In this document: piece after piece, positions 4,504 to 19,935 of the stretch
How the letters are laid out: every line of letters begins with the position of its first letter
Numbering within the stretch: the first letter of the stretch is position 1
NCBI GenBank assembly: GCA_048884785.1
Contig: JBHLQM010000064.1
Location: 1-19,935, forward strand
Source: Candidatus Thorarchaeota archaeon
GTDB lineage: Archaea > Asgardarchaeota > Thorarchaeia > Thorarchaeales > Thorarchaeaceae
Reading direction: 5' to 3'
DNA: 19,935 nt
Translations under genes and position numbers: made by a program
Notes under the pieces: model-generated
Seen by the model: the letters and a program-made list of their open reading frames with translations, nothing else
What the model was told of the DNA's origin: nothing
The model's database searches: none

Positions 4504-5175
4504 CTAGAGTGCTTTCATAGCTCTGCTGACAAGAAACCAGCTGATATCTCCGAGCTGTTCATGTGGAAGATAGAATATTGAGTTGCTGTCGTATAGCAAT
4601 CTAACGCTTGCTGGGAATTCTTCGTCGTCCTTTTCAAAAGCAATCAAGATTTTCACCTTTGGAAGGAATAGAAGCTCAAATGCAAACTCACCAAAGTCTA
4701 CTCTCTTAGCTCCCATTTTTTCCAAAGCCTTAAACAATCCTTCTCTGTTTTCGACGAAAGCCTGTGTCAGAGCGTTGACATTTTCCTCATCAAATGAATA
4801 TCTGCACGCCCAAGAACCACGCAATGCACCAAACTTTACCCATTCATTTCCAATTCCCTTGTCTTTCGCCCTCGAATAGTAATAGAGATGTGGAATTATT
4901 CTGCTAGTATGGAAAGCGTCCCCAGTGAACAAGTCCATTGTTTCACCCGTGAAGAGGTTCACTCTTAGGCCAAGAATATTAACATGGTCTTTGCCGACAC
5001 CAAGTCTATTTCTAAGAGTCTTGATATCTTCGCCAAAATTCTCCCAGCTCCACATTGCAGAGCTTGAATCAAACTCCTCGATATTGAACCTTGAAGCAAG
5101 CTCGCGCGAGAGGCTCATCCAGTACTCCAGAATGTCGTCAGCCATTGCAATTCGGTCCATGTTTCCATCTGACAC
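4504..5175 (-). CDS. DUF3786-like protein
   Basis: C-terminal signature LPKVKILIAFEKDDEEFPASVRLLYDSNSIFYLPHEQL, plus HLYYY..A and WVKF. Starts 13 nt after the upstream stop; start is GTG 5175 or ATG 5160. Confidence 0.7.
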   Translation of the reverse strand: MSDGNMDRIAMADDILEYWMSLSRELASRFNIEEFDSSSAMWSWENFGEDIKTLRNRLGVGKDHVNILGLRVNLFTGETMDLFTGDAFHTSRIIPHLYYYSRAKDKGIGNEWVKFGALRGSWACRYSFDEENVNALTQAFVENREGLFKALEKMGAKRVDFGEFAFELLFLPKVKILIAFEKDDEEFPASVRLLYDSNSIFYLPHEQLGDISWFLVSRAMKAL

Positions 5176-5188
5176 CTATCAGTCTTTC

Positions 5189-5980
5189 TCAATGACCTTT
5201 TTCTTTCTCTATCTGATTCCTGCAATCTTCAATTCCTGTTGCCTCGCAGACGGCATATCTTGCATTATAGCCTGCAACATGGAGAAGTGCATCTCCAACC
5301 TCGCGATCCTTTGCCATTGATGCAGTACAGGGATAGGAATGATGCGCTTTTGCAATCTCATCGAATAAAGCATCTGTGTCACTGATTGATTTTCCTCTTA
5401 TCTTTTGGCTGACGTACCATGTGCATCCGCAGGGAGCAGACCTGAGAGGGCCTATCTCTGCAATAAACTGCCCCTTCATATCGACAAAATGGACTGGACG
5501 ACCCAATTTGTAGGTCTCTATGAATTCATCTATCAGCTTTCCCTCACCTAGTTCAAGCGTGCAGAAAGGCTTGGGAAACGCCGATTCAACTCCCATCTTA
5601 TTCAGAGTTTCCCTCACTTGTTCTCTCAAACCAGGTGGTACCCATGATGGGTCTTCAATTGGAACGAGGACAGCTTTTGCGCCAGTTGCTTCGACTAGAA
5701 TGTCGATTGATGCCAATAGATCATGATGAATTGCAACTACAAGTAGGATGTCACACTCAGTTAGTCTAATGTCTTTGAAGTATTCTTCAGGATCCTCAAT
5801 TATCGTGGGTGAAACTGACTCAACTTTTTGCGCGCCAACAATATCTCCGACAAATGAACCATATGTCTTCCTACATTCAGAACAAACTGGCTCGCAGCCA
5901 GTGCAGAAATTCTTGAACGAGATTAGATTTCCCAACACTCGTTCTGCAAAGACATCGCCATATACTGCAGCAATTCGCAA
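5189..5980 (-). CDS. DUF166 (COG1810)-like protein with an N-terminal Cys cluster
   Basis: Motifs HHDL, FPKPFCTL, RSAPCGCTWYV and HHSYPCTASM..D, plus N-terminal CTGCEPVCSEC. TTG 5980 preceded by SD GGTGA; the track's extension to 6253 overlaps the opposite-strand gene. Confidence 0.75.
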   Translation of the reverse strand: MRIAAVYGDVFAERVLGNLISFKNFCTGCEPVCSECRKTYGSFVGDIVGAQKVESVSPTIIEDPEEYFKDIRLTECDILLVVAIHHDLLASIDILVEATGAKAVLVPIEDPSWVPPGLREQVRETLNKMGVESAFPKPFCTLELGEGKLIDEFIETYKLGRPVHFVDMKGQFIAEIGPLRSAPCGCTWYVSQKIRGKSISDTDALFDEIAKAHHSYPCTASMAKDREVGDALLHVAGYNARYAVCEATGIEDCRNQIEKEKGH

Positions 5981-6120
5981 GACAATCACCCATAAAGTGT
6001 CAGGATGGTCGCATAACACTAAAAAAGGGTGATGTTTGCGGCTCAGAACCACAACAGAAATGTAATATGGACTACCCAATGAAACGGTGTAGAAAAACTG
6101 GGTACTAGGATGGCAAGAAT

Positions 6121-6516
6121 ATGGCCCTAGGCGACTTTCTCTTTCCGCACATCGAGGTGGAGCTAGTGATTGCTCATTCGTTTGAAGCCGATATAGCCGG
6201 GACTGGCGACAAGCTCTCTCAAGGCTACATGGATGTCGCCGCTCGTGTTGCACTAAATAAAGGTGATTTGCAGAAACTTGGATTACAGGACGGGAAGCAT
6301 GTCATACTAAAATCAAAAGCAGGTGCTGTTGTAGTCGCTGCCTTTGGAAGTGAAAAGGTTGCAGAGGGGTTGGCAGTGATGCCTCATGGACCATGGGCTT
6401 TGGCACTCGTTGCAGTACCCTCAGATGATTCTCCTCCAGTGCTTCATGGAGTTACAATTGCAGCCACTCGTACCAATGATGAGATCACTCGTCCGGAATC
6501 TCTTCTTGCTCCCTGA
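6121..6516 (+). CDS. FwdD/FmdD-like molybdopterin-dinucleotide-binding (double-psi barrel) protein, degenerate
   Basis: ARVALNKGDLQKLGLQDGKHVILKSKAGAVVV...EGLAVMPHGPWA follows the FwdD pattern (MNPEDM..LG...GD.V.V.S..G.VVV...G.V.IP.GPWAN); length is 131 aa. Confidence 0.75.
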   Translation: MALGDFLFPHIEVELVIAHSFEADIAGTGDKLSQGYMDVAARVALNKGDLQKLGLQDGKHVILKSKAGAVVVAAFGSEKVAEGLAVMPHGPWALALVAVPSDDSPPVLHGVTIAATRTNDEITRPESLLAP

Positions 6517-7837
6517 TCGATTTGATGACCTTCTTGGTATTTCCTCTCTCCAATTGAAGATGGACTCTAGGATTCTTTCTCAAGAAGTCCCTGATTTCTT
6601 GGACTGCTGCCATCGCCTTATCGCGCTCCCCATCAATGGAATCCCACCCTCTTCTCTCATTAGGTTTAACGCGTTGCCTTTCCACCGCATTAACAGTAAT
6701 ATCCCTTTCAAAGAGCTCGCTTGGCGGGGGTCCCTTTCCGACGACAGCATCGAAAAAGACCCTTCTTGCGCGTTCCCATTCTCTAGCTCTTTCGAGTTCT
6801 TCAACTACATATCCTTCTCTGTGGACCTCAAGGACTTCATAGGGGCAGGAATGTTCGCAGGCTCCACAATATACACAATTCTCGTCCCTTATGGCAATCT
6901 TATCTTCCGTCCCAGTTGGGTAGATGGCCTTCACAGGGCAGATGTTGAAGCAATTATTGCACCCTGTAGGGTCACATTTTTCCAGTTTCACTATTCTGAC
7001 TTCGCCTGCAAAAGGCTTGGTGACTTCAAGCGCATCATAAGGGCAGACCTCCGCACAAAGACCACACTTGACACATGTATCGTCATTGTGTGTAAGCTTG
7101 CCACTGATCTCAGGGTCCTTGATCTCTCTTGGGGACGATTCCGAGCAGGTCACCTCAATTGCCTCGTCTGGGCAAATTTTGGCGCAGAGACCACAGTAGT
7201 CACACTTCTCCTCAGTGACTCTTATTGCCACGGCTGGCCTAAAATCTGGAGGTTCTGCTGAGTCTGACCAAAATATCGTGATGGCTTCAGGACAGAGCAG
7301 TTCACATAGCCCGCAGAGAGAACACTTTTCTTCATCAATCTTGATAGTCCCCTTTGCATATTCCTCTCCCTCATATGTAACCAAGTCCACTTTCCTGTCA
7401 ACCTTAACATCTACATCAAGGGATTTTGTGGGGCATACTTTCGCACAAAGAAGACAAGGTTTGCATTTTTCCTCATCAATTGTGTGTACCCCGTCTATGC
7501 GGTTGAATTCGTTTACAGCCCCCTCTCCCTCATACTTTGCGTCAAATGCACGGAAGATACAGGCGGAATCACAGAGACCACAGAAAGTGCAGGCTTCAGG
7601 GTCAACATTCACAAGAGAAGCTCCCTCAATCAGCCCGGAGGCCATTTCTTTGACAGGTCCCATGGTGATGGCATCCCATGGACACGGAAGGCACAGATTG
7701 CACCCCACACATTTTGAAATCTCATGGTCAAGAGTCTTTGTCAGAAGTGAGGTCTTCCAGACAAGTCTTACCTTTCCATCGACAAGATCCATGGAAATTA
7801 CTGGCTTTTCACCAACTGAAACGCCATGTTTCTCCAT
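6485..7837 (-). CDS. fwdF: FwdF/FmdF-type polyferredoxin, 8 x [4Fe-4S]
   Basis: Eight ferredoxin motifs: CVGCNLCLPCP, CTFCGLCDSACI, CKPCLLCAKVCP, CSLCGLCELLCP, CDYCGLCAKICP, CVKCGLCAEVCP, CDPTGCNNCFNICP, CVYCGACEHSCP. ATG 7837 lies 4 nt after the hdrA stop with GGTG upstream. Confidence 0.8.
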   Translation of the reverse strand: MEKHGVSVGEKPVISMDLVDGKVRLVWKTSLLTKTLDHEISKCVGCNLCLPCPWDAITMGPVKEMASGLIEGASLVNVDPEACTFCGLCDSACIFRAFDAKYEGEGAVNEFNRIDGVHTIDEEKCKPCLLCAKVCPTKSLDVDVKVDRKVDLVTYEGEEYAKGTIKIDEEKCSLCGLCELLCPEAITIFWSDSAEPPDFRPAVAIRVTEEKCDYCGLCAKICPDEAIEVTCSESSPREIKDPEISGKLTHNDDTCVKCGLCAEVCPYDALEVTKPFAGEVRIVKLEKCDPTGCNNCFNICPVKAIYPTGTEDKIAIRDENCVYCGACEHSCPYEVLEVHREGYVVEELERAREWERARRVFFDAVVGKGPPPSELFERDITVNAVERQRVKPNERRGWDSIDGERDKAMAAVQEIRDFLRKNPRVHLQLERGNTKKVIKSIREQEEIPDE

Positions 7838-7841
7838 GTAT

Positions 7842-10256
7842 CTATACACCGCCTGCCTTCTGGGCTGTCTTCTCAAGTTCCTTGCCAAGAGGTCCTATTC
7901 TTGTGACTTCATTCACGAACTCAGTTACCTGTTCTGCAAATCTATCAGCTTCTGATGCCGAGGTACTTCCGAAGTACAGGCGCCTCTCGTCGATTCCTGC
8001 GGCCTTGAGAACATCCTTCAGATTTTCCGTCCTATCCATAGCATGTTTTGCGCCTGACCGATAGTGACAGTCTTGTACGTGGCATCCCATGACAGCAACA
8101 CCATCAGCCCCCTCAGCAAATGCTGTGAGCAGTGTATCTGCGTTCAGGCGGCCTGTACAGGGTACCTGAATCGGAATCATATTTGCTGGATATCTCATGC
8201 GTGCAGTTCCTGCCCTGTCAGCAGCTCTGTAGGCACACCATCGACATAAATAGCCCACAATAGCTGGTCTGTTGGGATTGAATTGAATTGCTGCCCTAGT
8301 TGCGTTCTCTAGCTGTTCATTGGTCAAACATGGCAAATCAAGAGCGCCTGACGGGCAAGCGGCCACACACGCTCCGCACGCACGGCATGCAACCAGATCA
8401 ATATCTGGTACCTCCTCTCCGTTGAACTTGATTGCTTTGGATGTGCAGACTTGTTCGCAGAGTCTGCACGCAATGCATAGATCAACATCAAAGGATGGCA
8501 CACAAGCGTCTGTTATCACCTCACCTGAAGCCAGCAATGTCTTTACTTTAGAAGCAGCAAGACCTGCGTGTGCTACAGTGTCTGCTATATCCTTAGGACC
8601 CTGAGCCACTCCAGCCAAGAAAACACCCCTTGACTCGGTGCTGCTTGGCGCAAGTTTCGGATGCTGTTCAAGAAAGAATCCGTTCTCATCTAGAGGTGCT
8701 TTGAAAAGTCTAGCAAGTTCTGGATTGCTTGGTTCTGGATCCATTCCCACCATGAGAACCACTAGGTCGACCTCCATCTCCATCATTCTTCTGAGAAGGG
8801 TGTCTTCGGCTCTTATAGTGGTCTTCCGCGTTACCGGATCCTGAAAGACTTCGCCAATTGAACCTCGAATGAAATTGACTTTGTATTCCTCTGCAGCTCG
8901 GACATAGAGTTCTTCTTGTCCTTTGCCAAAGGTTCTCATATCAGTATAGAAGACGAATGCCTCGCTTTCAGGTAGCTGTTGTTTGAGCTGGATAACTTCC
9001 TTTACAGCTGCAGAGCAACAGGCTCTACTACAATATGGTCGTTGGAATCTATGCGACCTGCTCCCAACACAAGGAGCAAAGACAATGCGATGTGGGGTTG
9101 TGCCATCTGAGGGTTTTACTAGTTTTCCCCCGCTTGGTCCTCCAGGGTTCATTAGACGTTCCAATTCAACAGAGGTCACCACATCCGGAATTTCTCCATA
9201 ACCCAGTTCCTCAACAATTGTAGGATTAAATGGTTTGAAGCCAGTCGCTACAATTACCGCACCTACATCAAGTATCTCTGTATCATCAAGCTCATCATAA
9301 CGGAGTGATTTTGGTTCACACACTCCGGCGCACGACTGACATCCAATACAATTCTCAATATCGATATACGGAGCTTTGGGGACTGCATCGACAGTAGGAC
9401 GCACCATTGCTCTCCGTTTTCCAAGACCGTTGTTGTATTCATCAATCACATCTACAGGACATACTTCGATACATCGATTGCATCCGGTGCATGTATCAAT
9501 GTCAACATATCTTGCCGCTTTTCTAACGGTGACACGGTATTGCCCAACTCTACCTTTCACCTCAATAACATCGGCAAGGGTAATGATTCGGATAGATGGA
9601 TGTCTTGCCGCCCGTGCCATCATTGGGCCGAGGATACATATACTACAGTCAAATGTTGGAAAGAGCTTGTCGAATTTCGCCATATGCCCTCCAATGAAGC
9701 CTTCTCTCTCCACAATGACAGTTTCAATTCCAGCATCTGCAAGCTCTAGAGCTGCAGTGACTCCAGCGACTCCTCCACCCACAACGAGAGCTCGTTGCAC
9801 AATAGGCATCTCGCGTGTCGGAATTGCATAGGACTCCCTCACTCTCGCGATACCAGTATCAATGATCGCAGCCGCCTTTTCTGTAGCGGCTTCGGGGTCA
9901 TCATAATGCACCCAACTGCATTGCTCTCTTATATTCGCCATGTGCAGATATCCTGGATTGATACCAGCTTCTTTCACAGCGTCTGAAAACAGTTCGCTGT
10001 GTAGCAGTGGCGAGCAGCCTGCAATCACAACTCTCTCTGATTTGCTTTTCTTGATTTTATCAATTAAATCGAACACTCCCTGCTCCGAGCAGAGATGATC
10101 GTCAACATCCACGAGAGGAATTCCTTGTTTTTCATATCTTTCTCTCAATCTATCGATATCTATCGTTTCTGCAATATTGGAGCCGCAGCGACACAAGAAG
10201 ACGGCTAGTTTATCCTTACCTTCTGTTTTTCTAGTGGTAGGCTTCTTGCGGCTCAC
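7842..10256 (-). CDS. hdrA: Heterodisulfide reductase subunit A fused to an MvhD/FlpD [2Fe-2S] domain
   Basis: N-terminal VFLCRCGSNIA..LCS..AGCSP..ANIREQCSWVH; FAD motif GGGVAG; FPTFDCSICILGP; two ferredoxin domains; ELERL; CVGSR..YCSRACC; GPKDI. C-terminal MvhD motifs YLCRWCAY, PCTGR, GADGV and GCH..DCHY. GTG 10256 with SD AGGTGA preferred over 10265. Confidence 0.93.
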   Translation of the reverse strand: MSRKKPTTRKTEGKDKLAVFLCRCGSNIAETIDIDRLRERYEKQGIPLVDVDDHLCSEQGVFDLIDKIKKSKSERVVIAGCSPLLHSELFSDAVKEAGINPGYLHMANIREQCSWVHYDDPEAATEKAAAIIDTGIARVRESYAIPTREMPIVQRALVVGGGVAGVTAALELADAGIETVIVEREGFIGGHMAKFDKLFPTFDCSICILGPMMARAARHPSIRIITLADVIEVKGRVGQYRVTVRKAARYVDIDTCTGCNRCIEVCPVDVIDEYNNGLGKRRAMVRPTVDAVPKAPYIDIENCIGCQSCAGVCEPKSLRYDELDDTEILDVGAVIVATGFKPFNPTIVEELGYGEIPDVVTSVELERLMNPGGPSGGKLVKPSDGTTPHRIVFAPCVGSRSHRFQRPYCSRACCSAAVKEVIQLKQQLPESEAFVFYTDMRTFGKGQEELYVRAAEEYKVNFIRGSIGEVFQDPVTRKTTIRAEDTLLRRMMEMEVDLVVLMVGMDPEPSNPELARLFKAPLDENGFFLEQHPKLAPSSTESRGVFLAGVAQGPKDIADTVAHAGLAASKVKTLLASGEVITDACVPSFDVDLCIACRLCEQVCTSKAIKFNGEEVPDIDLVACRACGACVAACPSGALDLPCLTNEQLENATRAAIQFNPNRPAIVGYLCRWCAYRAADRAGTARMRYPANMIPIQVPCTGRLNADTLLTAFAEGADGVAVMGCHVQDCHYRSGAKHAMDRTENLKDVLKAAGIDERRLYFGSTSASEADRFAEQVTEFVNEVTRIGPLGKELEKTAQKAGGV

Positions 10257-10485
10257 ATGTTTCACCTGATTGATAGGGCAAACCGTTTGTTTTGTACCTC
10301 GCTACGGTGCCGCTGAGATTGTATAAGTTTGCCTCTAGAGGACACGAAGTACCATATATTCTGTTTTCCTGTAGGAATTTAATCCGTGTAAGATATTATC
10401 TGCACCCACCGTATAGTTCATGTACAAAACAGGGAATGGCTTGAGGAGTGTCACAATCAAGTATTGATTGTGGAGGCATATTATA
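10257..10485. promoter_or_regulatory. Divergent promoter region between hdrA-fwdF and fwdG-fwdB-cooC
   Basis: About 230 nt non-coding gap between divergent starts; minus-strand BRE/TATA-like GGCAAACTTATACA near 10319-10333; SD GGAGG at 10472-10476. Confidence 0.45.
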
Positions 10486-10944
10486 TTGAAACTCAGCCCC
10501 ATGGAACTATACAATTTGCTGCCAAAGACTAACTGCAGGTTATGTGGGCCCAAGACGTGTATGGCATTTGCAACAAAGCTCGCGCTTGGTGACGTTTCAC
10601 CTGATGAATGTCCTCCTCTCTTGGAAGCAGGGTTTGAGCAGAACCTGCAAAAGATTCGTGATTTAGTTGCTCCATTACAATCAACTGCAGAAACAGGCGT
10701 AAAGCTTGATGAAAGTAAATGTACTGGCTGTGGCAATTGTGTTGTTGTGTGCCCAGTTGATATTGCAGTTGAGCCGCCAACAGGCATTGGCAAAGCTGCC
10801 AAGGATGGTTCGACGGTATTCAGAGTTGAGAATGGAATTTCAAAGATAATCAATTTGGAGAAATGCAGACGATTTCCACCTGACAGGCTTAATTGTCGTG
10901 TCTGTGAGCAATATTGCTGTACTAATGCTATTGAGATATGGTAG
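10486..10944 (+). CDS. fwdG: FwdG-type ferredoxin with an N-terminal CdhE/RnfB-type Fe-S domain
   Basis: N-terminal LLPKTNCRLCGPKTCMAFA..L.....ECP. C-terminal CTGCGNCVVVCPV...G.G......VFRVENG...INLEKC...CRVCEQYCCTNAI is typical of FwdG. TTG 10486 follows SD GGAGG. Confidence 0.75.
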   Translation: MKLSPMELYNLLPKTNCRLCGPKTCMAFATKLALGDVSPDECPPLLEAGFEQNLQKIRDLVAPLQSTAETGVKLDESKCTGCGNCVVVCPVDIAVEPPTGIGKAAKDGSTVFRVENGISKIINLEKCRRFPPDRLNCRVCEQYCCTNAIEIW

Positions 10945-10953
10945 GTGGTGAAT

Positions 10954-12177
10954 ATGGAGGATATAATCTGCAGCGGTTGTTCACTTCTCTGTGATGATGT
11001 TTCTGTTATGGTTGAAAAGGGGGAAGTCAGTTCGATGGGATTATGCCGACTCGGTCATGCTCACCTGACAGAGTCATTCAAGCTCCAAGAACCAACTGCA
11101 ATTATTCGAGAGGATGGGAAATCGCGTAGAGTTTCTCTCGAGGAGGGTATCTCTAATGCCGTCGAGATTCTGAAGAACAGCCAGAAGTCAACTCTACTGT
11201 ATGGATGGGCAAACTCATCAAATGAAACAATCAAAGAAGGCCTTCTTCTTGCGGAATCTCTTGGAGCCCAATTTGAGGCTCTGACCGGAATGGGTGCGAA
11301 TCAGTCGTTGGCCCATGATCTACACAAGTTCAAGCTTGATGTGGACTTGGAGTACGTCAGGAACAATGGAGAGTTCATAATCTATTGGGGATCCGACCCG
11401 ACCGAGAGTCTTCATAGACACCCAAGCAGATTTGCCGTATTGCCTAGAGGTGACAAAATCCCAGAGGGGATAGAGAGCCGAATAATCGGAGTTGTTGATG
11501 TTCGAGAAACAGAAACCATGAAGATGGCAAACCATCGGATAAAGATCCCAATTGGCACTGATGCAGAATTCATCAAACCAATAATATCTGAACTCTCCGG
11601 AAAAGGAGCAATAACTCAGGCAGTTCTAGGCATTCCAGCGGCGGAGATGCTCGGACTTGTGAGAGGTCTTCAGAAATCAGACTGCACAGTGATATTCTAT
11701 GGAAGTGGTATTCTAAATTCAGGCCATGCACAGAAAAACCTTCAGGCAATCAAGGAGCTTGTTGATACTCTCCGTTCCTTAGGAAAGGAGGCATATGCAC
11801 TTCCCATGTTTCCGGAAGCCAATTCGATGGGCGCCATAACCGCTTTGAAGGATGCAGCATCTGGTTCTAGTGTCTTTCTCAATATTATCAATGGGAGCTT
11901 TGCATCCGCACTTGTTGCAGACGATGATGTTCTTGCGGCAATTCCTGGCCCCGCAGCCAAGGCACTTGCTGGGACCAGCATAATCTATATTGGCTCTCCA
12001 GGAACATTCACTGATTCTGTGGCATCTGTTTCATTCCACCTTCCAAATCCTATTACAAGCGGATCCGGGTCCATGGTTCGTATTGACATGATTTCTGCAG
12101 AGTTTAGAGCCTGGCAGGGAAGCAAGAGCATTGTAAGCAAAGCTGAGTTGCTTAACAAGATCCGCAAGGCGATATAA
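10954..12177 (+). CDS. FwdB/FmdB-like protein lacking the W/Mo ligand and catalytic residues (putative non-catalytic homologue)
   Basis: FwdB framework: CSGCSLLCDD..CRLG, LLYGW, YWGSDP..SLHRH.SR, VVDVRETET, FYGSG, LPM, GSMVRID. The SVCHGP and MRGHYN motifs are replaced. ATG 10954 follows SD GGTGGTGA. Confidence 0.85.
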   Translation: MEDIICSGCSLLCDDVSVMVEKGEVSSMGLCRLGHAHLTESFKLQEPTAIIREDGKSRRVSLEEGISNAVEILKNSQKSTLLYGWANSSNETIKEGLLLAESLGAQFEALTGMGANQSLAHDLHKFKLDVDLEYVRNNGEFIIYWGSDPTESLHRHPSRFAVLPRGDKIPEGIESRIIGVVDVRETETMKMANHRIKIPIGTDAEFIKPIISELSGKGAITQAVLGIPAAEMLGLVRGLQKSDCTVIFYGSGILNSGHAQKNLQAIKELVDTLRSLGKEAYALPMFPEANSMGAITALKDAASGSSVFLNIINGSFASALVADDDVLAAIPGPAAKALAGTSIIYIGSPGTFTDSVASVSFHLPNPITSGSGSMVRIDMISAEFRAWQGSKSIVSKAELLNKIRKAI

Positions 12178-12197: not shown

Positions 12198-13001
12198 ATG
12201 AAAGTAGCAGTTGCAGGAAAAGGCGGAGTCGGCAAGACAACGGTGGCAGGTACCCTAGCCCGGCTACTCGGACAGGATGGCTTGCATATCCTTGCAGTCG
12301 ATGCCGATCCTAGTTATACACTCTGGTCTGCCATAGGAATTCCAGCGGAAGTGGCCGCCAAGATTGTTCCTCTCACCGAGAATGCCGAGTTGGTTGAAGA
12401 ACGACTGCAGATTAAAGAAGTGGGTCCGACTTCCACTGGTGTCTTTAAGCTCAATCCTCGTGTTGACGATCTTGCAGCCAAATTTGCCATTAGAGGGCCC
12501 GATAATGTAGACCTGCTTGTTGCAGGAACTGTTGATGTGGGTGGTTCTGGTTGCATGTGTCCATCTGCGACTCTGCTCAAATCTCTCATGCGGCATCTTG
12601 TGATTGGAACAGATGAGGCATTCATCATGGACATGGATGCGGGTGTGGAAAACTTGGGCCGTGGAACAACCAAAGGTATGGATGCGCTCATAGTCGTTAC
12701 AGAGCCAGGACGAAGAGCACTTGACATTCTCGGGAAAATCAGAAATCTTGCAGGTGATATTGGAGTAGGGCGGGTGTTTGCTGTAGGAAATAAGATAGCA
12801 ACTCCTGAAGATGAGCAGATGATACGAGATCGAGTAGAATCTGAAGGGATACCAATTTTGGGTATGATTCCTCTTGACGACTCAATCAAAGAGGCAGATA
12901 GAAGAGGAATGGCTCCAATAGACTTGGAACCCAAATCTCCAGCGATGATGGCAATCAGAGAAATCAAGCAGAGAATCGTTCAAGAAACCAAAACCGCCTA
13001 G
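12198..13001 (+). CDS. cooC: CO dehydrogenase/ACS nickel-insertion ATPase (CooC/AcsF family)
   Basis: Deviant Walker A GKGGVGKTT, DADP, FKLNPRVDD, Ni-binding GCMCP, DMDAGVENLGRG and GNK; SD AAGGAG upstream. Confidence 0.92.
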   Translation: MKVAVAGKGGVGKTTVAGTLARLLGQDGLHILAVDADPSYTLWSAIGIPAEVAAKIVPLTENAELVEERLQIKEVGPTSTGVFKLNPRVDDLAAKFAIRGPDNVDLLVAGTVDVGGSGCMCPSATLLKSLMRHLVIGTDEAFIMDMDAGVENLGRGTTKGMDALIVVTEPGRRALDILGKIRNLAGDIGVGRVFAVGNKIATPEDEQMIRDRVESEGIPILGMIPLDDSIKEADRRGMAPIDLEPKSPAMMAIREIKQRIVQETKTA

Positions 13002-13135: not shown

Positions 13136-15520
13136 ATGATTCAGCCAAAACTACTACGCACAGGAACTGAGCGAGCTATGAAGAAGAAAGCTTACTTCAA
13201 AGCAGACGAAGCGGACACAGGTTTGGGTCATTTCAAAGGTCTCGAAGTCAGAATCGGCGAGATTGTTGATGACGAGTGGGACGAGCCAATGGGTCCTACA
13301 CCAATGCCCGGTCTGACAACTCTGCGATCGTGGGATCACAAACTTCTTACAAAATACCAGCCGTCATACATGCCATATTGTCAAGTATGCTGCCTCTGTA
13401 CAATGGGCAAATGTGATTTGTCTGGAACAAAGAGAGGTGCCTGCGGTATAGACATGAAAGCACAACAGGGCAGGATTGTACTGGCAGCGGCCAATATAGG
13501 CACAGCAGCGCATTTGGCACACTCCAGACACCTGATTGATCATCTAATAGATGAGTATGGCCCTCGGACCAAACTTATTCAGGGTCCCGGCACCGAGATT
13601 CATGCTCCTATTTCACGATTGGTAACAGGAATGCGGCCTCGTACTTTGGAGGATGCAAGCATTATCATTGACTATTGTGAGAGCCAACTGGCTCATGGTC
13701 TCTCGGCTACGGCAACTGGACAAGAAGGGAGCTGGCTAGACTTTGAGAGCAAGGTCTTCCATATGGGGATGATTGACCATCTCGCGCTGGAAATCGCTGA
13801 TTTGGCACAGGTTTCAACTCTTGATATGCCCCAAGCAGATCCAGATGCACCTCTTGTACGGGCCGGTCTCGGAAATATGGATGCAAGTAAGGCAACTATA
13901 TTGACCATAGGGCACAATATTGTGCCTGCCGCAGCCATAACAGACTATATCACTGAGAAGAAACTTGGTGAGGTGGTAGAAGTTGGTGGGATTTGCTGTA
14001 CCGCGTGGGACATAACACGGCGTGATAAGAATGCAAAGGTCATCGGTCCTATCTCATGGCAGCTTAGATTCATTCGAAGCGGTGGTGCTGACATTGTTGT
14101 TGTTGACGAGCAGTGTGTCCGCACGAATGTTGTTGATGAAGCCAAGAAAGTAATGGCTCCAGTCATATCAACCAGCGACAAAGCGGTGATGGGACTTCCT
14201 GATAGATCAGATGACTCAGTTGACTCCATTGTTAATGAATTGGTTTCTGGAAAGATACCGGGGGCCTATATTCCTGACCATCGAAAGGTTGGAGAGGTTG
14301 CCGTCAAAGTAGCACTAGCAATGAAGCCAATTCGTGAAAAGAAGAAATTCTTGCCCAGCAAGAAGCAGATTCAGAAGATGGCTGAAGAGTGCAAGAAATG
14401 CATGGAATGTGTGCGAGCATGTCCCAATGACCAGAACGTGCAGGAAGCCGTTCTTGCCGCAGCTACAGGCAACATGGAGCCACTGCGAGAGATCTACAGC
14501 AACTGTATCGGGTGTGCTCGATGCGAGTCCGCCTGTCCAAATGAATATGACCTACACAGCTGGATGGTTGTCGCAGGGGAGAAAGACTGTGACAATGAAA
14601 CCTACATGGTGCGAACCGGTAGGGGTGCAGTTCAGGATACAGAGATTAGAAGGGTAGGTCAACCAATCGTCTTTGGAGAGATCCCCGGTGTAATTGCACA
14701 TGTTGGGTGCGCTAACTATCCTGGTGGAGGCCAAGATGTACATGACATGGCTGAGGAGTTCGCGAAACGAAGATTCATCATCGTGACCTCAGGATGTGCC
14801 GCGATGTCTGCTGGCATAGTGAAAGATGAGAACGGACAATCAATCTATGAGCGAAGAAGTGGCGAGTTTGATGCAGGAAGCGTGGTCAATGTAGGATCCT
14901 GTGTTGCTAACTCACACATTGCTGGTGCAGCCATCAAAATTGCTGCCATTTTCGCGAAAAGAAACCTTCGTGGCAATTATGCAGAGATTGCAGATTACAT
15001 CTACAATCGAGTAGGAGCGGTAGGAATCTCATGGGGTGCCATGTCCCAGAAAGCAGCTGCGATTGCTGCAGGATTCTGGAGGCTCGGTGTTCCTGTGATT
15101 GTTGGACCCCATGGTTCCAAGTACCGCAGAATGCTGCTCGGAAATCCAGAAAATGAGAGGGACTGGATGGTCTATGATGCCAGAACTGGAGAACGGATGC
15201 TGACTGCACCCGGACCGGAACATCTCTTCTATGCAGCAGAAACAAAACAAGAAGCGATGGTTATGACCGCAAAGCTCTGCATCAGGCCAAATGATACAGG
15301 AAAGGGACGATCTATCAAACTCAGCCACTACATAGATCTTCATGAAACACACTACGGATTCTTCCCAGAAGATATCTGGAAATACATCCGTCGTGAGTCA
15401 GATATACCTATCACGCTCAAGGATAGAATTCTGACTCAAATGAAGGAGAACAAGTGGAAGGAGCGACCGATTCCTGACCCAACACTGCTCAAGGAGCAAA
15501 TCATGGGAGGTGGTACATAA
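13136..15520 (+). CDS. cdhA: ACDS alpha subunit (archaeal Ni-CO dehydrogenase)
   Basis: EPMGPTP; CQVCCLCTMGKCDL..RGACG (B/D clusters); C-cluster ligand motifs GHN, GICCT, DEQC, GCAN, SGC, GSC; two extra ferredoxin motifs CKKCMECVRACP and CIGCARCESACP. Alternative start at ATG 13178. Confidence 0.97.
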   Translation: MIQPKLLRTGTERAMKKKAYFKADEADTGLGHFKGLEVRIGEIVDDEWDEPMGPTPMPGLTTLRSWDHKLLTKYQPSYMPYCQVCCLCTMGKCDLSGTKRGACGIDMKAQQGRIVLAAANIGTAAHLAHSRHLIDHLIDEYGPRTKLIQGPGTEIHAPISRLVTGMRPRTLEDASIIIDYCESQLAHGLSATATGQEGSWLDFESKVFHMGMIDHLALEIADLAQVSTLDMPQADPDAPLVRAGLGNMDASKATILTIGHNIVPAAAITDYITEKKLGEVVEVGGICCTAWDITRRDKNAKVIGPISWQLRFIRSGGADIVVVDEQCVRTNVVDEAKKVMAPVISTSDKAVMGLPDRSDDSVDSIVNELVSGKIPGAYIPDHRKVGEVAVKVALAMKPIREKKKFLPSKKQIQKMAEECKKCMECVRACPNDQNVQEAVLAAATGNMEPLREIYSNCIGCARCESACPNEYDLHSWMVVAGEKDCDNETYMVRTGRGAVQDTEIRRVGQPIVFGEIPGVIAHVGCANYPGGGQDVHDMAEEFAKRRFIIVTSGCAAMSAGIVKDENGQSIYERRSGEFDAGSVVNVGSCVANSHIAGAAIKIAAIFAKRNLRGNYAEIADYIYNRVGAVGISWGAMSQKAAAIAAGFWRLGVPVIVGPHGSKYRRMLLGNPENERDWMVYDARTGERMLTAPGPEHLFYAAETKQEAMVMTAKLCIRPNDTGKGRSIKLSHYIDLHETHYGFFPEDIWKYIRRESDIPITLKDRILTQMKENKWKERPIPDPTLLKEQIMGGGT

Positions 15521-15521
15521 A

Positions 15522-16070
15522 ATGATGCAATCAGTACCATGGCAGACTGGGGAAATATGTGGTCCAGACGCTGCCAAGACTCTGAACAAAGCTGATGTTC
15601 TCAAGAGGGATTTCAAATTATGTAAGAAACCTCTTCTTATAGTTGGTTCAGAAGCTGTGAAAGAGAAATACGACAAAGGCACAATGGTTGATTATATCAT
15701 TGAGCTATCCAATGCAGGAAAAATTCCTGTCATAGCGACGGGAGGAGCAATAAAGGCATTCCTTGAGAAGGGATTCACGAATGCCAAATCCATGGGTGCA
15801 ATGGAAGTAGCTTATTTCCTACAAGACACTGAGTGGAAAGGGCCTCATAAAACAGGTCCCTATGACATGATCCTTACCTATGGAATGCCATACTTCATGC
15901 AGTGGACACTTCTGTCTGCTGTGATGAACTTTGCCCCACATATTACTGCAATCGCATTGGGGCGACACTATCAGCCACATGCCAAATGGAGTTGTCCAAA
16001 TCTCAAAGAGAAGAATTGGCATGAACTCCTGAAAGATATACTCGCTCTAGTGGGAGGAGGAAGCACATAG
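15522..16070 (+). CDS. cdhB: ACDS epsilon subunit
   Basis: Follows cdhA; PWQ, KKPLLIVGS, IPVIAT, LQDTEWKG...G.YD and YQPHAKWSCPN motifs; ATG 15522 after SD GGAGGTGG. Confidence 0.92.
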   Translation: MMQSVPWQTGEICGPDAAKTLNKADVLKRDFKLCKKPLLIVGSEAVKEKYDKGTMVDYIIELSNAGKIPVIATGGAIKAFLEKGFTNAKSMGAMEVAYFLQDTEWKGPHKTGPYDMILTYGMPYFMQWTLLSAVMNFAPHITAIALGRHYQPHAKWSCPNLKEKNWHELLKDILALVGGGST

Positions 16071-16071
16071 C

Positions 16072-17478
16072 ATGTCATTTGAAGATATACCAGTAGACAT
16101 TGGCGTTGTCTATGAAGGAGAACGCGTGAGAGGCAAGGACATGTTTGTCGAGCTCGGCGGTCCCAAAATGGAGAAGAAGTTCGAGCTGGCACTTGCCAGA
16201 GGCATGGACGAGATTGAAGATGAAAAGATCAAAATAATTGGTCCAGACCTCAAAGACATGGAACCGGAGAGCTATCATCCCCTCGGCATCCTCATTGAAG
16301 TTGCTGGGAAGGACATTGAGCCTGACCTTGAGGGAGTTATTGAACGAAGAATCCACGAATATGTGAACTTTGTTGAAGGTATGATGCACCTGAACCAGAG
16401 ATATGACATCTGGATTCGACTCAGCAAGAAGTCATTTGACAAGGGCTTCAACTCACTCGAATATCTGGGTAAGGTCTTGATTCGACTCTTTAAGAGTGAG
16501 ATGAATATCATCGAGAAGATTCAGGTGACATTCATCACAGACCCGAAAGAGGTCGAAGGCAGATATGAAGAGGCCATAAACAGATACAACGCTCGCGATG
16601 AACGGGCACGAGGTCTGAGTGATGCTGATGTTGATACCTTCTATGGGTGTTCACTCTGTCAATCATTTGCACCAACACACGTCTGCACCATTACTCCACA
16701 GAGATACGCCAACTGTGGAGCTATTAGCTGGTTTGACGGGCGTGCCGCGGCCAGAGTCGATCCAAAAGGTCCACTTTATGCAATTCCCAAGGGAGATACA
16801 ATTGATGACTTCCGTGGCGAATACACAGGAGTCAATCAAGCATATGTTGAGAAATCCCTGGGCAAGGTGAACTCGGTCGCACTTTATAGCGCATTCGAGA
16901 AACCTCACACAAGCTGCGGATGCTTTGAGGCAATAGCATTCGTAATTCCAGAGGTTGACGGACTTGGGATAGTTCACAGAGACTTCAAGGGCGAAACTGT
17001 CAATGGATTGCCATTCTCAAGCATGGCAGACTCTACAGCCGGTGGACGCCAAGTTCCAGGATTCCACGGGCTCTCAATTGAATACATGAGGTCTCCAAAA
17101 TTCCTTCAGGTTGATGGAGGATGGGACAGAGTAGTATGGCTCCCGGAGTCTATTAAGGAGAGAGTGGTTGATTTCATACCTGATGCAATCCGTGATAAGA
17201 TTCCGACGGAATCGGATGCTATGAGTATTGGTGACCTTAAGGCTTTCCTGAAAACAAAGAACCACCCTGTAGTTGGGCGATGGACTGAGATTGCTGAAGA
17301 AGATGAGGAATTACCCGGAGATATGACCCGCGGTGATGACTATGTTTCAGTTCCCGGAGAACTGACTGCAATGGTTGGAGGCGTTGGCGGTGGCCTTGAG
17401 ATTATTTTCAAAAATGCCAAGATATACGCCGAACGGGTCATCATCCGAAAGAAAGATGTTGGTGGCAAGAAGAAATGA
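16072..17478 (+). CDS. cdhC: ACDS beta subunit (acetyl-CoA synthase)
   Basis: YEGERVR, ELGGP, LEGVIERRIH, HLNQR; A-cluster ligands GCSLCQSFAPTHVC, CGAISW and PHTSCGCFE. Confidence 0.97.
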   Translation: MSFEDIPVDIGVVYEGERVRGKDMFVELGGPKMEKKFELALARGMDEIEDEKIKIIGPDLKDMEPESYHPLGILIEVAGKDIEPDLEGVIERRIHEYVNFVEGMMHLNQRYDIWIRLSKKSFDKGFNSLEYLGKVLIRLFKSEMNIIEKIQVTFITDPKEVEGRYEEAINRYNARDERARGLSDADVDTFYGCSLCQSFAPTHVCTITPQRYANCGAISWFDGRAAARVDPKGPLYAIPKGDTIDDFRGEYTGVNQAYVEKSLGKVNSVALYSAFEKPHTSCGCFEAIAFVIPEVDGLGIVHRDFKGETVNGLPFSSMADSTAGGRQVPGFHGLSIEYMRSPKFLQVDGGWDRVVWLPESIKERVVDFIPDAIRDKIPTESDAMSIGDLKAFLKTKNHPVVGRWTEIAEEDEELPGDMTRGDDYVSVPGELTAMVGGVGGGLEIIFKNAKIYAERVIIRKKDVGGKKK

Positions 17479-18668
17479 CCGCGAAAAAGGACGAAAAGAC
17501 CACCACATTAGATGACCTGTTTGGTGACTTTGCAGAGCTCGTGCTTGAGAATGTAACGATTGAACTCGATGAACTCAAGCTCGCTCTCCGTCCAATGATA
17601 CAGCAGATGGCGCGAAGTGCAGCTCAGCCTGCGCTATCTGTTCCGAAGTCCCTAATCGCCTCCAAATTTGAACCTCCATTTGGTGAATATACCTCGACCA
17701 TCCATGAAATCACGATTGGTGCTACCAAGGGTGAGGGTGGGACTCGAAGCAAGGCTGTAACCATTGGCGGACATACAGCTCCAGCCTGGGATTTATTTCA
17801 ATCACCACCAAAGAATCCTCCAGTTGTCGCTGCTGATGTCTTTGATATGAAAATCTCATTGGCAAAGGCCGTAAAGATGCACTATCAAGAAGTGATAGAA
17901 GATCCTGCTGAGTGGGCAAAACTCTGTGTCAATAAATTCGGTGCGGATGTCATAACCATGCATCTAATCAGCACAGACAGACAATTGAAGGATACATCTC
18001 CAAATGATGCTGCAAAGACACTTGAAGAAGTACTTCAGGCAGTGAAAGTACCAATTCTCGTTGGTTCTGCAGGGGATCCAGAGAAAGACGGACCAGTTCT
18101 GGCTAAAGCCGCGGAAGTGTGTGAAGGCGAGAAAGTACTCTTGTGTTCTGCGACAATTGATGTATACGAGGAAATTGCAGAAGCCGCAAAGAAGCACGAT
18201 CAAGTTGTCCTCTCATGGACATCTCTTGACATCAATCAGCAGAAAGAGCTCAATCGTCGATTGGTCGATTGGCTCCGACCCGACCAGATTGTAATTGATC
18301 CCACAACGGCTGCATTGGGCTATGGTCTTGAATATGCTTTCACAATGATGCAACGAATGCGTTTGGCTGGGCTTCTTGGAGATAGCGAATTACAATATCC
18401 AATAAGCTCAGGAACCACCAACGCCTGGGCTGCGAGAGAGGCTTGGCTGAATGCTCCTGAACTTGGACCTAGAGAGCTAAGAGGGCCAATCTGGGAGAGC
18501 GTTACAGCACTTGCGCTGCTACTGGCAGGAAATGACCTCTTTATGATGATGCATCCTGCAGCCATCAAGACTGTTCACGATCTTGTTGGATGGATGAAGG
18601 AAAGACGAAAAGTCACTGCAGATGATTATCCTGATTGGACAACCATCTCAATTCCGGAGGGAACATAA
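17475..18668 (+). CDS. cdhD: ACDS delta subunit (corrinoid Fe-S protein small subunit)
   Basis: IGAT..EGGTR, DPAEWAK, GDPEKD..VL.KAAE, DINQQKELNR, DPTTAALGYGLEY, NAWAAREAW, MMMHP; ATGA overlap with cdhC. Confidence 0.96.
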   Translation: MTAKKDEKTTTLDDLFGDFAELVLENVTIELDELKLALRPMIQQMARSAAQPALSVPKSLIASKFEPPFGEYTSTIHEITIGATKGEGGTRSKAVTIGGHTAPAWDLFQSPPKNPPVVAADVFDMKISLAKAVKMHYQEVIEDPAEWAKLCVNKFGADVITMHLISTDRQLKDTSPNDAAKTLEEVLQAVKVPILVGSAGDPEKDGPVLAKAAEVCEGEKVLLCSATIDVYEEIAEAAKKHDQVVLSWTSLDINQQKELNRRLVDWLRPDQIVIDPTTAALGYGLEYAFTMMQRMRLAGLLGDSELQYPISSGTTNAWAAREAWLNAPELGPRELRGPIWESVTALALLLAGNDLFMMMHPAAIKTVHDLVGWMKERRKVTADDYPDWTTISIPEGT

Positions 18669-19935
18669 TGGCGAAACTTCCTGGTCCATTAGAGATCTAT
18701 CCGCTCTTACCTGGCACCAATTGCAAGGAATGTGGAGAGGCAAACTGCATGGCATTTGCTACCAAGCTTGCAGAACATACAGTCAAGATCAAGGCTTGTA
18801 GCCCCCTCTACAAAGAGGCCAAGTATGCCAAGAAACTCGCAAAACTTGATGATCTTATTCGCCCACCTGTACGTGAAGTTGTAATTGGCGTTGGAGATAG
18901 GGCAGCGGCTATAGGTGGGAAGCTTGTTCTCTACCGACACGATCTTCGCTACTCAAACGAGACTGCCTTCTTTGTTGATGTGCCTGACACATTGGATAAG
19001 GAGGGTCTCTCAAAGAGGGTAAAAGCCATTGAAGACTGGACATACGTCTATATTGGACAGAACCTTCGCCTAGATGGCATTGCCCTTCGCGGTGTTTCCA
19101 AGGATCCCCAGATGTTTGCAAAAGCAGCCAAGACAATTACAGAGATATCTGATTGGCCTATTGCCCTCTGTTCCCTAGATCCCAAAATGCTGGCTACTGC
19201 TGCAAATGCAATAGCGGACAAAAGACCTCTGCTTTATGCTGCAACTCTGGATACTTGGACCGAAGTCGGTGAAATTGCGGTGAAGCATAATCTTCCTCTT
19301 GTTGCATATGCGCCTGGGAATTTAGATGACGTTTCCACCCTGGTGAACACACTGAGAGCAATGGGTGTTGAGGAAATCGTCATTGACCCCGGCACTATTT
19401 CAAAATCCGGACTGGGAACCACTATCGACAATCTCACACAACTGAGGCGATCCTCGACGGTCAATGATAATGAAACACTTGGCTATCCACTCCTTGGTAC
19501 ACCAATCACTGTTTGGGCTGACTACAAGGAGGGTGAGGCACCAGAATTGACCAAATGGGATGAAACACTTGTTGCAGCCTCGCAGATTGTCAGATACTCA
19601 GACATGATTATTATCCATAGTATTGATATGTGGACCAATCTACCCACAACATTTCTGCGCAGCAATCTCTACACTGACCCCGTTAAGCCGGTTGCAGTTG
19701 AAGCGGGGCTGAAGAAGTTTGGAGAGGCTGGACCTGATTCGCCTGTCATGTACACGACCAACTTCGCATTGACATACTTCACCGTTGAGAGTGATATCAA
19801 ACAAGGTAATGTTGATGCATGGCTTGTTGTAGTTGACACAGAAGGGATGAGTGTTCAATCCGCTGTTGCAGGAAGAAAGCTTACCGCCGAGAAAGTTGCT
19901 GAAACCTTAGAGGAGGTTGGAATCTCCGAGAAGGT
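18668..19935 (+). CDS. cdhE: ACDS gamma subunit (corrinoid Fe-S protein large subunit), truncated at the window edge
   Basis: Not in the ORF track because it has no stop. Manual translation from ATG 18668 (TAATG overlap): MAKLPGPLEIYPLLPGTNCKECGEANCMAFATKL...IGGKLVLYRHD...LGYPLLG...NLYTDPVKPVAVEAG...TTNFALTYFTVESD...VDTEGMSVQSAVAGRKL; open to the window end. Confidence 0.96.
   Translation, partial: MAKLPGPLEIYPLLPGTNCKECGEANCMAFATKLAEHTVKIKACSPLYKEAKYAKKLAKLDDLIRPPVREVVIGVGDRAAAIGGKLVLYRHDLRYSNETAFFVDVPDTLDKEGLSKRVKAIEDWTYVYIGQNLRLDGIALRGVSKDPQMFAKAAKTITEISDWPIALCSLDPKMLATAANAIADKRPLLYAATLDTWTEVGEIAVKHNLPLVAYAPGNLDDVSTLVNTLRAMGVEEIVIDPGTISKSGLGTTIDNLTQLRRSSTVNDNETLGYPLLGTPITVWADYKEGEAPELTKWDETLVAASQIVRYSDMIIIHSIDMWTNLPTTFLRSNLYTDPVKPVAVEAGLKKFGEAGPDSPVMYTTNFALTYFTVESDIKQGNVDAWLVVVDTEGMSVQSAVAGRKLTAEKVAETLEEVGISEK

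Follow-up and report, generated by a model that had tools for sequence, protein, structure and literature searches.

In the Fdh-Hdr-Fmd supercomplex of Methanospirillum hungatei (PDB 7BKB), low-potential electrons pass from the bifurcating flavin of HdrA through a polyferredoxin and FmdG to the cluster of FmdB and from there to the pterin. The MopB fold can also outlive its pterin: the C-terminal MopB domain of NuoG/Nqo3 has lost it and stays as a scaffold in the iron-sulfur (Fe-S) wire of complex I. FhcB, which is described as having no Fe-S domain, works with FhcA, FhcC, and FhcD in C1 transfer. It is a FwdB homologue that acts as a cofactor-less scaffold (PMC10100899). In Methanosarcina acetivorans, HdrA2, in which HdrA is fused to MvhD, shares an operon with a polyferredoxin that is up-regulated on acetate (PMC5296606), and a fwdGBD cluster that lacks A and C (fwdG2B2D2) has been named in Methanosarcina (PMC2838876). 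Here, a 19,935-nt stretch of DNA from a Candidatus Thorarchaeota archaeon (contig JBHLQM010000064.1; the whole stretch is referred to as the window) was analyzed, in which the open reading frame (ORF) at 10954-12177 encodes a FwdB homologue that has lost the metal-ligating Cys and the catalytic His and Arg and retains the [4Fe-4S] motif. The product of this ORF is called FwdB*, and the names FwdG* and FwdD* are used likewise for the other window-type Fwd paralogues.

The FwdB* ORF begins at an ATG with GGTGGTG just upstream, 9 nt beyond the stop of the FwdG* gene. Because it has no internal stop, and hence no in-frame TGA, a hidden selenocysteine (Sec) codon was ruled out. Against the NCBIfam FwdB profile TIGR03129, the protein scored 224 bits, under the curated equivalog cut-off of 327.8; it also matched TIGR01973 weakly, and a Pfam scan of it found no domain. 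Among solved structures, the strong HMMER matches were exclusively FwdB/FmdB chains (8rja_B, E = 1e-35; 5t5i_B, E = 1e-29), with which FwdB* aligned collinearly over its full length. An AlphaFold (AF2) model obtained with 61 homologues as input had a mean predicted local distance difference test score (pLDDT) of 89.7, and its top structural matches in Foldseek were the same two chains, at a template modeling (TM) score of 0.85. The first match outside FwdB was the NuoG domain of complex I (7awt_G, E = 5.5e-17). An earlier note on this DNA, made from the letters alone, had called the protein a FwdB homologue, and the profile, sequence, and structure matches agree. Model confidence was lowest (pLDDT 55 to 74) at about residues 151 to 190 (P0001; window ~11404-11523), a segment that is near-invariant in the family (HRHPSRFAVLPRG...EGIESR) and could be a candidate partner interface.

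Over the active-site segment the HMMER alignment was gapless, pairing ...SVCHGPS of FwdB with ...GMGANQS of FwdB*, and the MAFFT alignment was consistent with it. Gly114 occupies the position of the W/Mo-ligating Cys/Sec, Ala115 that of the catalytic His, and Phe286 that of the catalytic Arg, where PMRGHYN of FwdB pairs with PMFPEAN (Table 1). All three replacements had been proposed in the earlier note, which was correct to the codon (for the metal ligand, GGT and not TGA), and its reading of the N-terminal Fe-S motif as intact was equally accurate: C6, C9, C13, and C31 are present and invariant across 61 aligned homologues. The same genome encodes a canonical FwdB on another contig (C59), which scored 529.5 bits against TIGR03129 and contains SVCHGP, PMRGHYN, and DRMDG. 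Its flanking ORFs are one of the fwdD type and a long one, the latter taken as fwdA by position. FwdA and FwdC were not found among the window ORFs scanned, the canonical fwdD-B-A set being on C59. The canonical copy also shows that the altered pterin-binding segments listed in the note were not all informative. Erosion of canonical positions was evident (see below), but the SDP/DPR-type change carried no information, since the canonical FwdB of this genome itself reads DVR; "DVR instead of DPR" was therefore rejected as a sign of degeneration.

A search of 5.8 billion proteins yielded 208 FwdB* homologues at an E value of 0.001 or better. Among those listed were 120 clusters with 49 to 66% identity which, where named, came from Thorarchaeota or related Asgard metagenome-assembled genomes (MAGs). 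The cluster holding the window FwdB* query was made of short fragments. In a peptide-pattern scan of contigs, the pattern was also present in canonical FmdB, and about 60 of the 80 loci recovered were ordinary Methanomicrobiales FmdB, which were used as the canonical comparison set. Residues were then compared between 24 canonical FwdB/FmdB and three further groups: 18 clusters of the Thor type, 7 of the Hermod type, and 12 more distant relatives. The Cys-His-Arg combination was present in 24/24 canonical sequences versus 0/18 Thorarchaeial orthologue clusters, so that the losses are common to the orthologues, a point on which the note had asked for a check. In the Thor type, the ligand position was Gly in 17/18 clusters and Ser in one (P0006), the adjacent residue was unconserved, and the Arg was found in 0/18, while the four Fe-S Cys were retained in 18/18 Thor-type and 7/7 Hermod-type clusters. 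Canonical FwdB has 77 positions with conservation of 90% or more, and at only 29 of them did conservation in the Thor group reach 80% or more. Canonical Gly119, His156, Gly288-His289, Pro344, and Gly385 were retained in 0 to 11% of Thorarchaeial FwdB*, the Asn of GxNP was Asp in 10/18, and a conserved loop of ~17 to 20 residues was deleted in most Thor-type members. The alignments support the conclusion that FwdB* would be unable to act as a canonical CO2 reductase and should not be annotated as FwdB; most likely, the pterin is absent from it.

Selection has maintained the FwdB* gene, which gave a dN/dS of 0.14 in two orthologue pairs with unsaturated synonymous divergence. It is thus under purifying selection, and a pseudogene reading was rejected on this value. 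Many clade-specific residues are conserved, with HRHPSRF and NHR invariant in the family. The Thor loci nevertheless diverge unevenly: identity to the window proteins was 52 to 56% for FwdB* and 48 to 60% for FwdD*, compared with 81 to 86% for FwdG*, 74 to 77% for HdrA-MvhD, and 84 to 90% for CdhA. FwdB* and FwdD* are hence the fastest-diverging genes of these loci, ahead of the Fe-S carriers and of CODH/ACS (CO dehydrogenase/acetyl-CoA synthase), and FwdG* is the best-conserved protein of the module.

The position of FwdB* within the family was examined with an IQ-TREE phylogeny of 61 sequences (24 canonical and 37 in a paralogue clade; no FhcB sequence was included). Canonical FwdB was split from the 37-member clade by a branch with 100% support in the Shimodaira-Hasegawa-like approximate likelihood ratio test (SH-aLRT). 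Within the clade, which extends over archaeal MAGs of the Thor, Hermod, Baldr, Bathy, and Kor types and others, the Thor and Hermod types grouped together (99%), and the remaining paralogues branched below them. The note's view of FwdB* as an "independent archaeal pseudo-enzyme" was not supported as written, given this placement in a broad paralogue clade. The catalytic Arg was found in 0/37 members, whereas Cys-His was still present in 7/12 basal members, from Korarchaeia/Thermoproteota-labelled, some Bathyarchaeia, Baldrarchaeota, and Nitrososphaerota-labelled MAGs. At the same position, other Bathyarchaeia and Hecatellales had Tyr-Tyr or Gly-Tyr, and the Thor type had Gly-x. From this distribution, the order of loss is read as beginning with the Arg, after which the ligand was lost several times independently, with the Fe-S motif always kept. 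The Thorarchaeial state would then be the end of a stepwise series and not a stand-alone case, since the broad clade lacks the Arg and keeps Cys-His in part. The Hermod type (P0124, P0137, P0141, P0148, P0150, P0154, and P0167; loci L024 to L026) has an invariant Glu-Tyr in place of Cys-His and keeps the RMDG and loop motifs; the Glu-Tyr may mark a transitional form whose former pocket still binds something.

Loss of the canonical site is not confined to this clade. In an exhaustive HMMER collection of 134 full-length representatives of 50%-identity clusters, the full triad was present in only 12, and nearly all kept the four Cys. Judged by their residues, FwdB-like proteins without the canonical site are common and diverse. 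A homologue search started from P0192 reached Methanothrix relatives only and did not reach Methanosarcina FwdB2. The triad-less, four-Cys homologues (among P0204 to P0351) span several distinct clades, including Methanothrix (Cys-Gln and Val) and bacterial MAGs labelled Deferrimicrobium. No description of the FwdB* clade was found in the literature, the nearest being a remark that some FwdB-family hits are without the Cys (PMC10100899).

A set of five genes, encoding FwdG*, FwdB*, FwdD*, the polyferredoxin FwdF, and HdrA-MvhD, was found to recur across lineages, usually adjoining cooC-cdhABCDE. It was identified in four Thor loci, one divergent Thor-type locus, three Hermod-type loci, two Thermoproteota (one an isolate named Kor3), and several Bathyarchaeia and Hecatellales, the non-Asgard loci mostly adjoining cdh directly. 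In the Bathyarchaeia and Hecatellales loci, FwdB* abuts cdhA with no cooC between. A Baldrarchaeota MAG and a Nitrososphaerota-labelled MAG (L040 and L041) carry a single co-directional operon in the order FwdG*, FwdB*, HdrA-MvhD, FwdF, with gaps of 5 to 25 nt. Two Methanocellales MAGs (L043 and L053) contain a canonical fwdD-fwdB pair plus a second set, FwdG*-FwdB*-FwdD*, with no more than ~8 to 10 kb between the two.

The module was also compared with CODH/ACS for co-occurrence. In the window's family of 77 genomes, including the source genome, FwdB* and CdhA were both found in 36, FwdB* only in 1, CdhA only in 5, and neither in 35. The genome with FwdB* alone was 77% complete, and four of the five with CdhA alone were <90% complete. 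Full-length, intact FwdB* ORFs were present in 37/77 family genomes and in >120 clusters at 90% identity. In the Hermod-type family, FwdB* was detected in 18/19 genomes and CdhA in 17/19. These counts, which are descriptive only because the genomes are related, show dependence of the module on CODH/ACS and not the reverse. In several genomes of another Asgard family, full-length, high-scoring cdhA matches with one in-frame stop each were observed (TAA in G255, G177, G189, and G138; TAG in G117).

In the window itself, homologues of HdrA, MvhD, polyferredoxin, FmdG, FmdB, and FmdD are all encoded, as in PDB 7BKB, next to a cdh block (Table 1). FwdG* is composite. Its C-terminal half matches FwdG (9sfi_U and 5t5i_G); for the N-terminal 50 residues, the match is the [4Fe-4S] domain at the N terminus of the corrinoid Fe-S protein large subunit (4djd_C); its true start is likely the Met at about 10501. 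The FwdD* ORF is convergent with the polyferredoxin gene and overlaps the long ORF called as DUF166. FwdD* is retained across Thor, Hermod, Kor, Bathy, and Baldr loci, and the conserved Lys of the FwdD motif GMPxFKG aligned with His in the Thor type and was absent in the Hermod type. No hdrB or hdrC was found on the window contig, and elsewhere the genome encodes about twenty CCG-domain proteins. The DUF3786/DUF166 pair is only a possible member of the module.

Table 1. Features of the window, with coordinates in window positions.
Feature	Position	Strand	Description and evidence
FwdB*	10954..12177	+	407 aa; FwdB fold, no Cys/His/Arg, Fe-S motif intact; TIGR03129, HMMER, Foldseek
Four [4Fe-4S] Cys codons of FwdB*	10969..11046	+	C6 10969-71, C9 10978-80, C13 10990-92, C31 11044-46; alignment
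Gly114-Ala115 of FwdB*	11293..11298	+	GGT 11293-11295 and GCG 11296-11298 at W/Mo-ligating Cys/Sec and catalytic His; alignments, codons
Phe286 of FwdB*	11809..11811	+	TTT at catalytic Arg position; alignment, codon
FwdG*	10468..10944	+	FwdG-like 2x[4Fe-4S] with N-terminal CdhE/AcsC/RnfB-type [4Fe-4S] domain; 9sfi_U, 5t5i_G, 4djd_C
FwdD*	6121..6516	+	FwdD-like, domain IV cap; PF01568 46.9 bits; FwdD chains E 1e-8
FwdF-like polyferredoxin	6485..7888	-	Eight-cluster type; NF042909 FwdF 226.9 bits (cut-off 375); multiple Fer4 domains
HdrA-MvhD fusion	7842..10265	-	HdrA2 type; NF040770 892.6 bits (cut-off 1100); PF02662 at residues 669-791
CooC/MinD-type P-loop ATPase	12198..13001	+	PF01656, PF00142
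cdhA	13136-15520	+	cdh block by TIGR00314 (1090 bits), TIGR00315, TIGR00316, TIGR00381, NF003195
cdhB	15510-16070	+	cdh block profiles
cdhC	16072-17478	+	cdh block profiles
cdhD	17475-18668	+	cdh block profiles
cdhE	18635-19933	+	cdh block profiles; runs off window end
DUF3786 and DUF166 pair	4504..6253	-	DUF3786 4504-5175, DUF166 5189-6253; adjoins module in Thorarchaeial loci L027, L028, L029, L031

With somewhat better than even confidence, FwdB* is taken not to reduce CO2 but to serve as an Fe-S scaffold or wire subunit in a CODH/ACS-coupled Hdr-polyferredoxin complex. As a most likely pterin-free descendant of FwdB, it would be left with carrying one [4Fe-4S] cluster and acting as a scaffold for an electron-transfer assembly of Fwd origin, made up of FwdG* (bearing an additional Fe-S domain of the CdhE type), FwdB*, FwdD*, the FwdF polyferredoxin, and the HdrA-MvhD flavoprotein. 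The putative wire is modelled on the Fdh-Hdr-Fmd supercomplex, but would have no W/Mo site at its end, and FwdB* and FwdD* would survive in it as a structural core with one cluster, like NuoG in complex I and FhcB in the Fhc complex. An electron wire appears the most economical reading because all the Fe-S carriers are conserved and the catalytic end is eroded. A physical complex of the parts is suggested by the synteny and by the co-directional operon of L040 and L041. With CODH/ACS, the module probably swaps low-potential electrons, for the CO2/CO couple or for corrinoid reactivation. This partner is suggested by the linkage of the genes to cdh, by the CdhE-type Fe-S domain on FwdG*, and by the M. 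acetivorans HdrA-MvhD fusion, which is encoded with an acetate-induced polyferredoxin. A bolder proposal, which is speculative and somewhat unlikely as a whole, is that FwdG*-FwdB*-FwdD*-FwdF-HdrA-MvhD and CODH/ACS form a physical supercomplex in Thor-, Hermod-, Baldr-, Bathy-, and Korarchaeia-type archaea. Bifurcated electrons of very low potential would go directly, with no free ferredoxin involved, to the reduction of CO2 to CO or to corrinoid reactivation, the dead FwdB/FwdD serving as a docking adaptor, and such a supercomplex may also run in reverse in acetyl-CoA cleavage.

Several observations weigh against a scaffold or wire at CODH/ACS. The largest Asgard family sampled had CdhA in 63/68 genomes and no FwdB* at an E value below 1e-40, the matches being no better than 1e-32, and CODH/ACS therefore needs no such module. 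In Thorarchaeia, the HdrA-MvhD/FwdF pair is divergent from FwdG*-FwdB*, a gene order that does not evidence co-transcription. In FwdB, the [4Fe-4S] cluster points toward the pterin; by analogy with N7 of NuoG, the cluster of a pterin-free FwdB* could be a dead end and purely structural. The remaining points concern the cofactor. A missing Cys alone is no proof of a missing cofactor, since arsenite oxidase (AioA) holds its Mo-bis(pyranopterin guanine dinucleotide) without a protein ligand (PMC10100899). The FwdD-like cap gene is retained in the locus, the nucleotide-fold motifs GTD, DVR, G-x-G, and R-x-D persist in FwdB*, and some relatives may still bind a metal, given the Cys-His kept by basal members and the invariant Glu-Tyr of the Hermod type. 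Together with the Ser at the ligand position of one Thor orthologue (P0006), these cofactor-related points would also fit an enzyme in which FwdB*D* still binds a W/Mo-bis-pterin, with no protein ligand or with another one, and, supplied by HdrA and the polyferredoxin, catalyzes some reaction that is not CO2 reduction. This was judged unlikely, as the ligand position is Gly in 17/18 Thorarchaeial clusters beside an unconserved neighbor, the canonical glycines, histidines, and proline listed above are almost entirely lost, the GxNP Asn is frequently Asp, the conserved loop is deleted, the FwdD Lys is His or absent, and FwdB* and FwdD* evolve fastest in the locus.

The location of the FwdB* gene in Thor loci, directly between the FwdG* gene and cooC and upstream of cdhA, could instead be taken to indicate that FwdB* acts together with FwdG* and CooC in assembling or maturing the Ni-Fe-S centers of CODH/ACS or the corrinoid, and not as a steady-state electron carrier; the Fe-S domain type found on FwdG* serves the corrinoid in CdhE/AcsC. 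Such a role appears distinctly improbable. FwdB* abuts cdhA without cooC in Bathyarchaeia and Hecatellales, shares one operon with HdrA-MvhD and FwdF in Baldrarchaeota, has electron-transfer proteins as its conserved partners, and is missing from most Asgard genomes with cdhA. That FwdB* is a decaying, functionless fwdB duplicate is hardly credible: its catalytic residues are gone, no Pfam domain is recognized, and it diverges fast relative to its neighbors, but the abundance of full-length ORFs, the invariant Fe-S Cys, the conserved clade-specific residues, and the confidently folded model all argue for a retained function.

The residue losses bear on annotation. Names at JGI read "formylmethanofuran dehydrogenase subunit B", which justifies the warning in the earlier note that annotation as fwdB would mislead. 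Genome-based claims of CO2 fixation or release via the archaeal Wood-Ljungdahl pathway in Asgard, Bathy-, and Korarchaeia count fwdB hits, and these counts would be inflated because FwdB* carries that name publicly and appears incapable of that chemistry. FwdB* also marks a conserved, uncharacterized Hdr/polyferredoxin module at the CODH/ACS locus. CODH/ACS is supplied with electrons of about -500 mV, and a hard-wired bifurcating module, if true, would be a concrete answer to how non-methanogenic archaea provide them and conserve energy. The FwdB* clade would further provide a clean case of stepwise evolution from enzyme to scaffold.

With FwdB/FmdB of known structure (5T5I, 8RJA, and 7BKB chain H), FwdB* shares the fold and the four-Cys [4Fe-4S] motif, and the FwdD, FwdG, and FwdF partner types are encoded nearby. 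It differs in lacking the Cys/Sec, His, and Arg and the deleted loop, in scoring under the TIGR03129 cut-off, in forming a separate clade, and in adjoining cdh genes with no adjacent fwdA or fwdC. The G-B-D set without A and C recalls Methanosarcina fwdG2B2D2, a likeness by gene names only (PMC2838876). The B, D, G, and F chains of the M. hungatei supercomplex (7BKB) are homologous to FwdB*, FwdD*, FwdG*, and FwdF, and HdrA occurs with MvhD in both. However, the 7BKB wire ends in an active Mo/W site, whereas in FwdB* this site is gone, the genes are at a CODH/ACS locus, and no hdrBC is in the window. FhcB of the methylotroph formyltransferase/hydrolase complex (6S6Y) is another FwdB homologue, one that works as a scaffold without the cofactor. 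The solved FhcB chain (361 aa) gave a weak match to the C-terminal part of the profile only (E = 6e-10) and a TM score of 0.64; unlike FhcB, FwdB* keeps the cluster motif, has electron-transfer neighbors, and has no FwdA or FwdC homologues beside it. NuoG/Nqo3 has the MopB fold in common with FwdB* as its first structural match outside FwdB, but comes from the formate dehydrogenase-related MopB lineage, is fused to other Fe-S domains, and works in a membrane complex. In its mode of working, FwdB* would thus join FhcB and NuoG in the known class of cofactor-less MopB-fold scaffolds.

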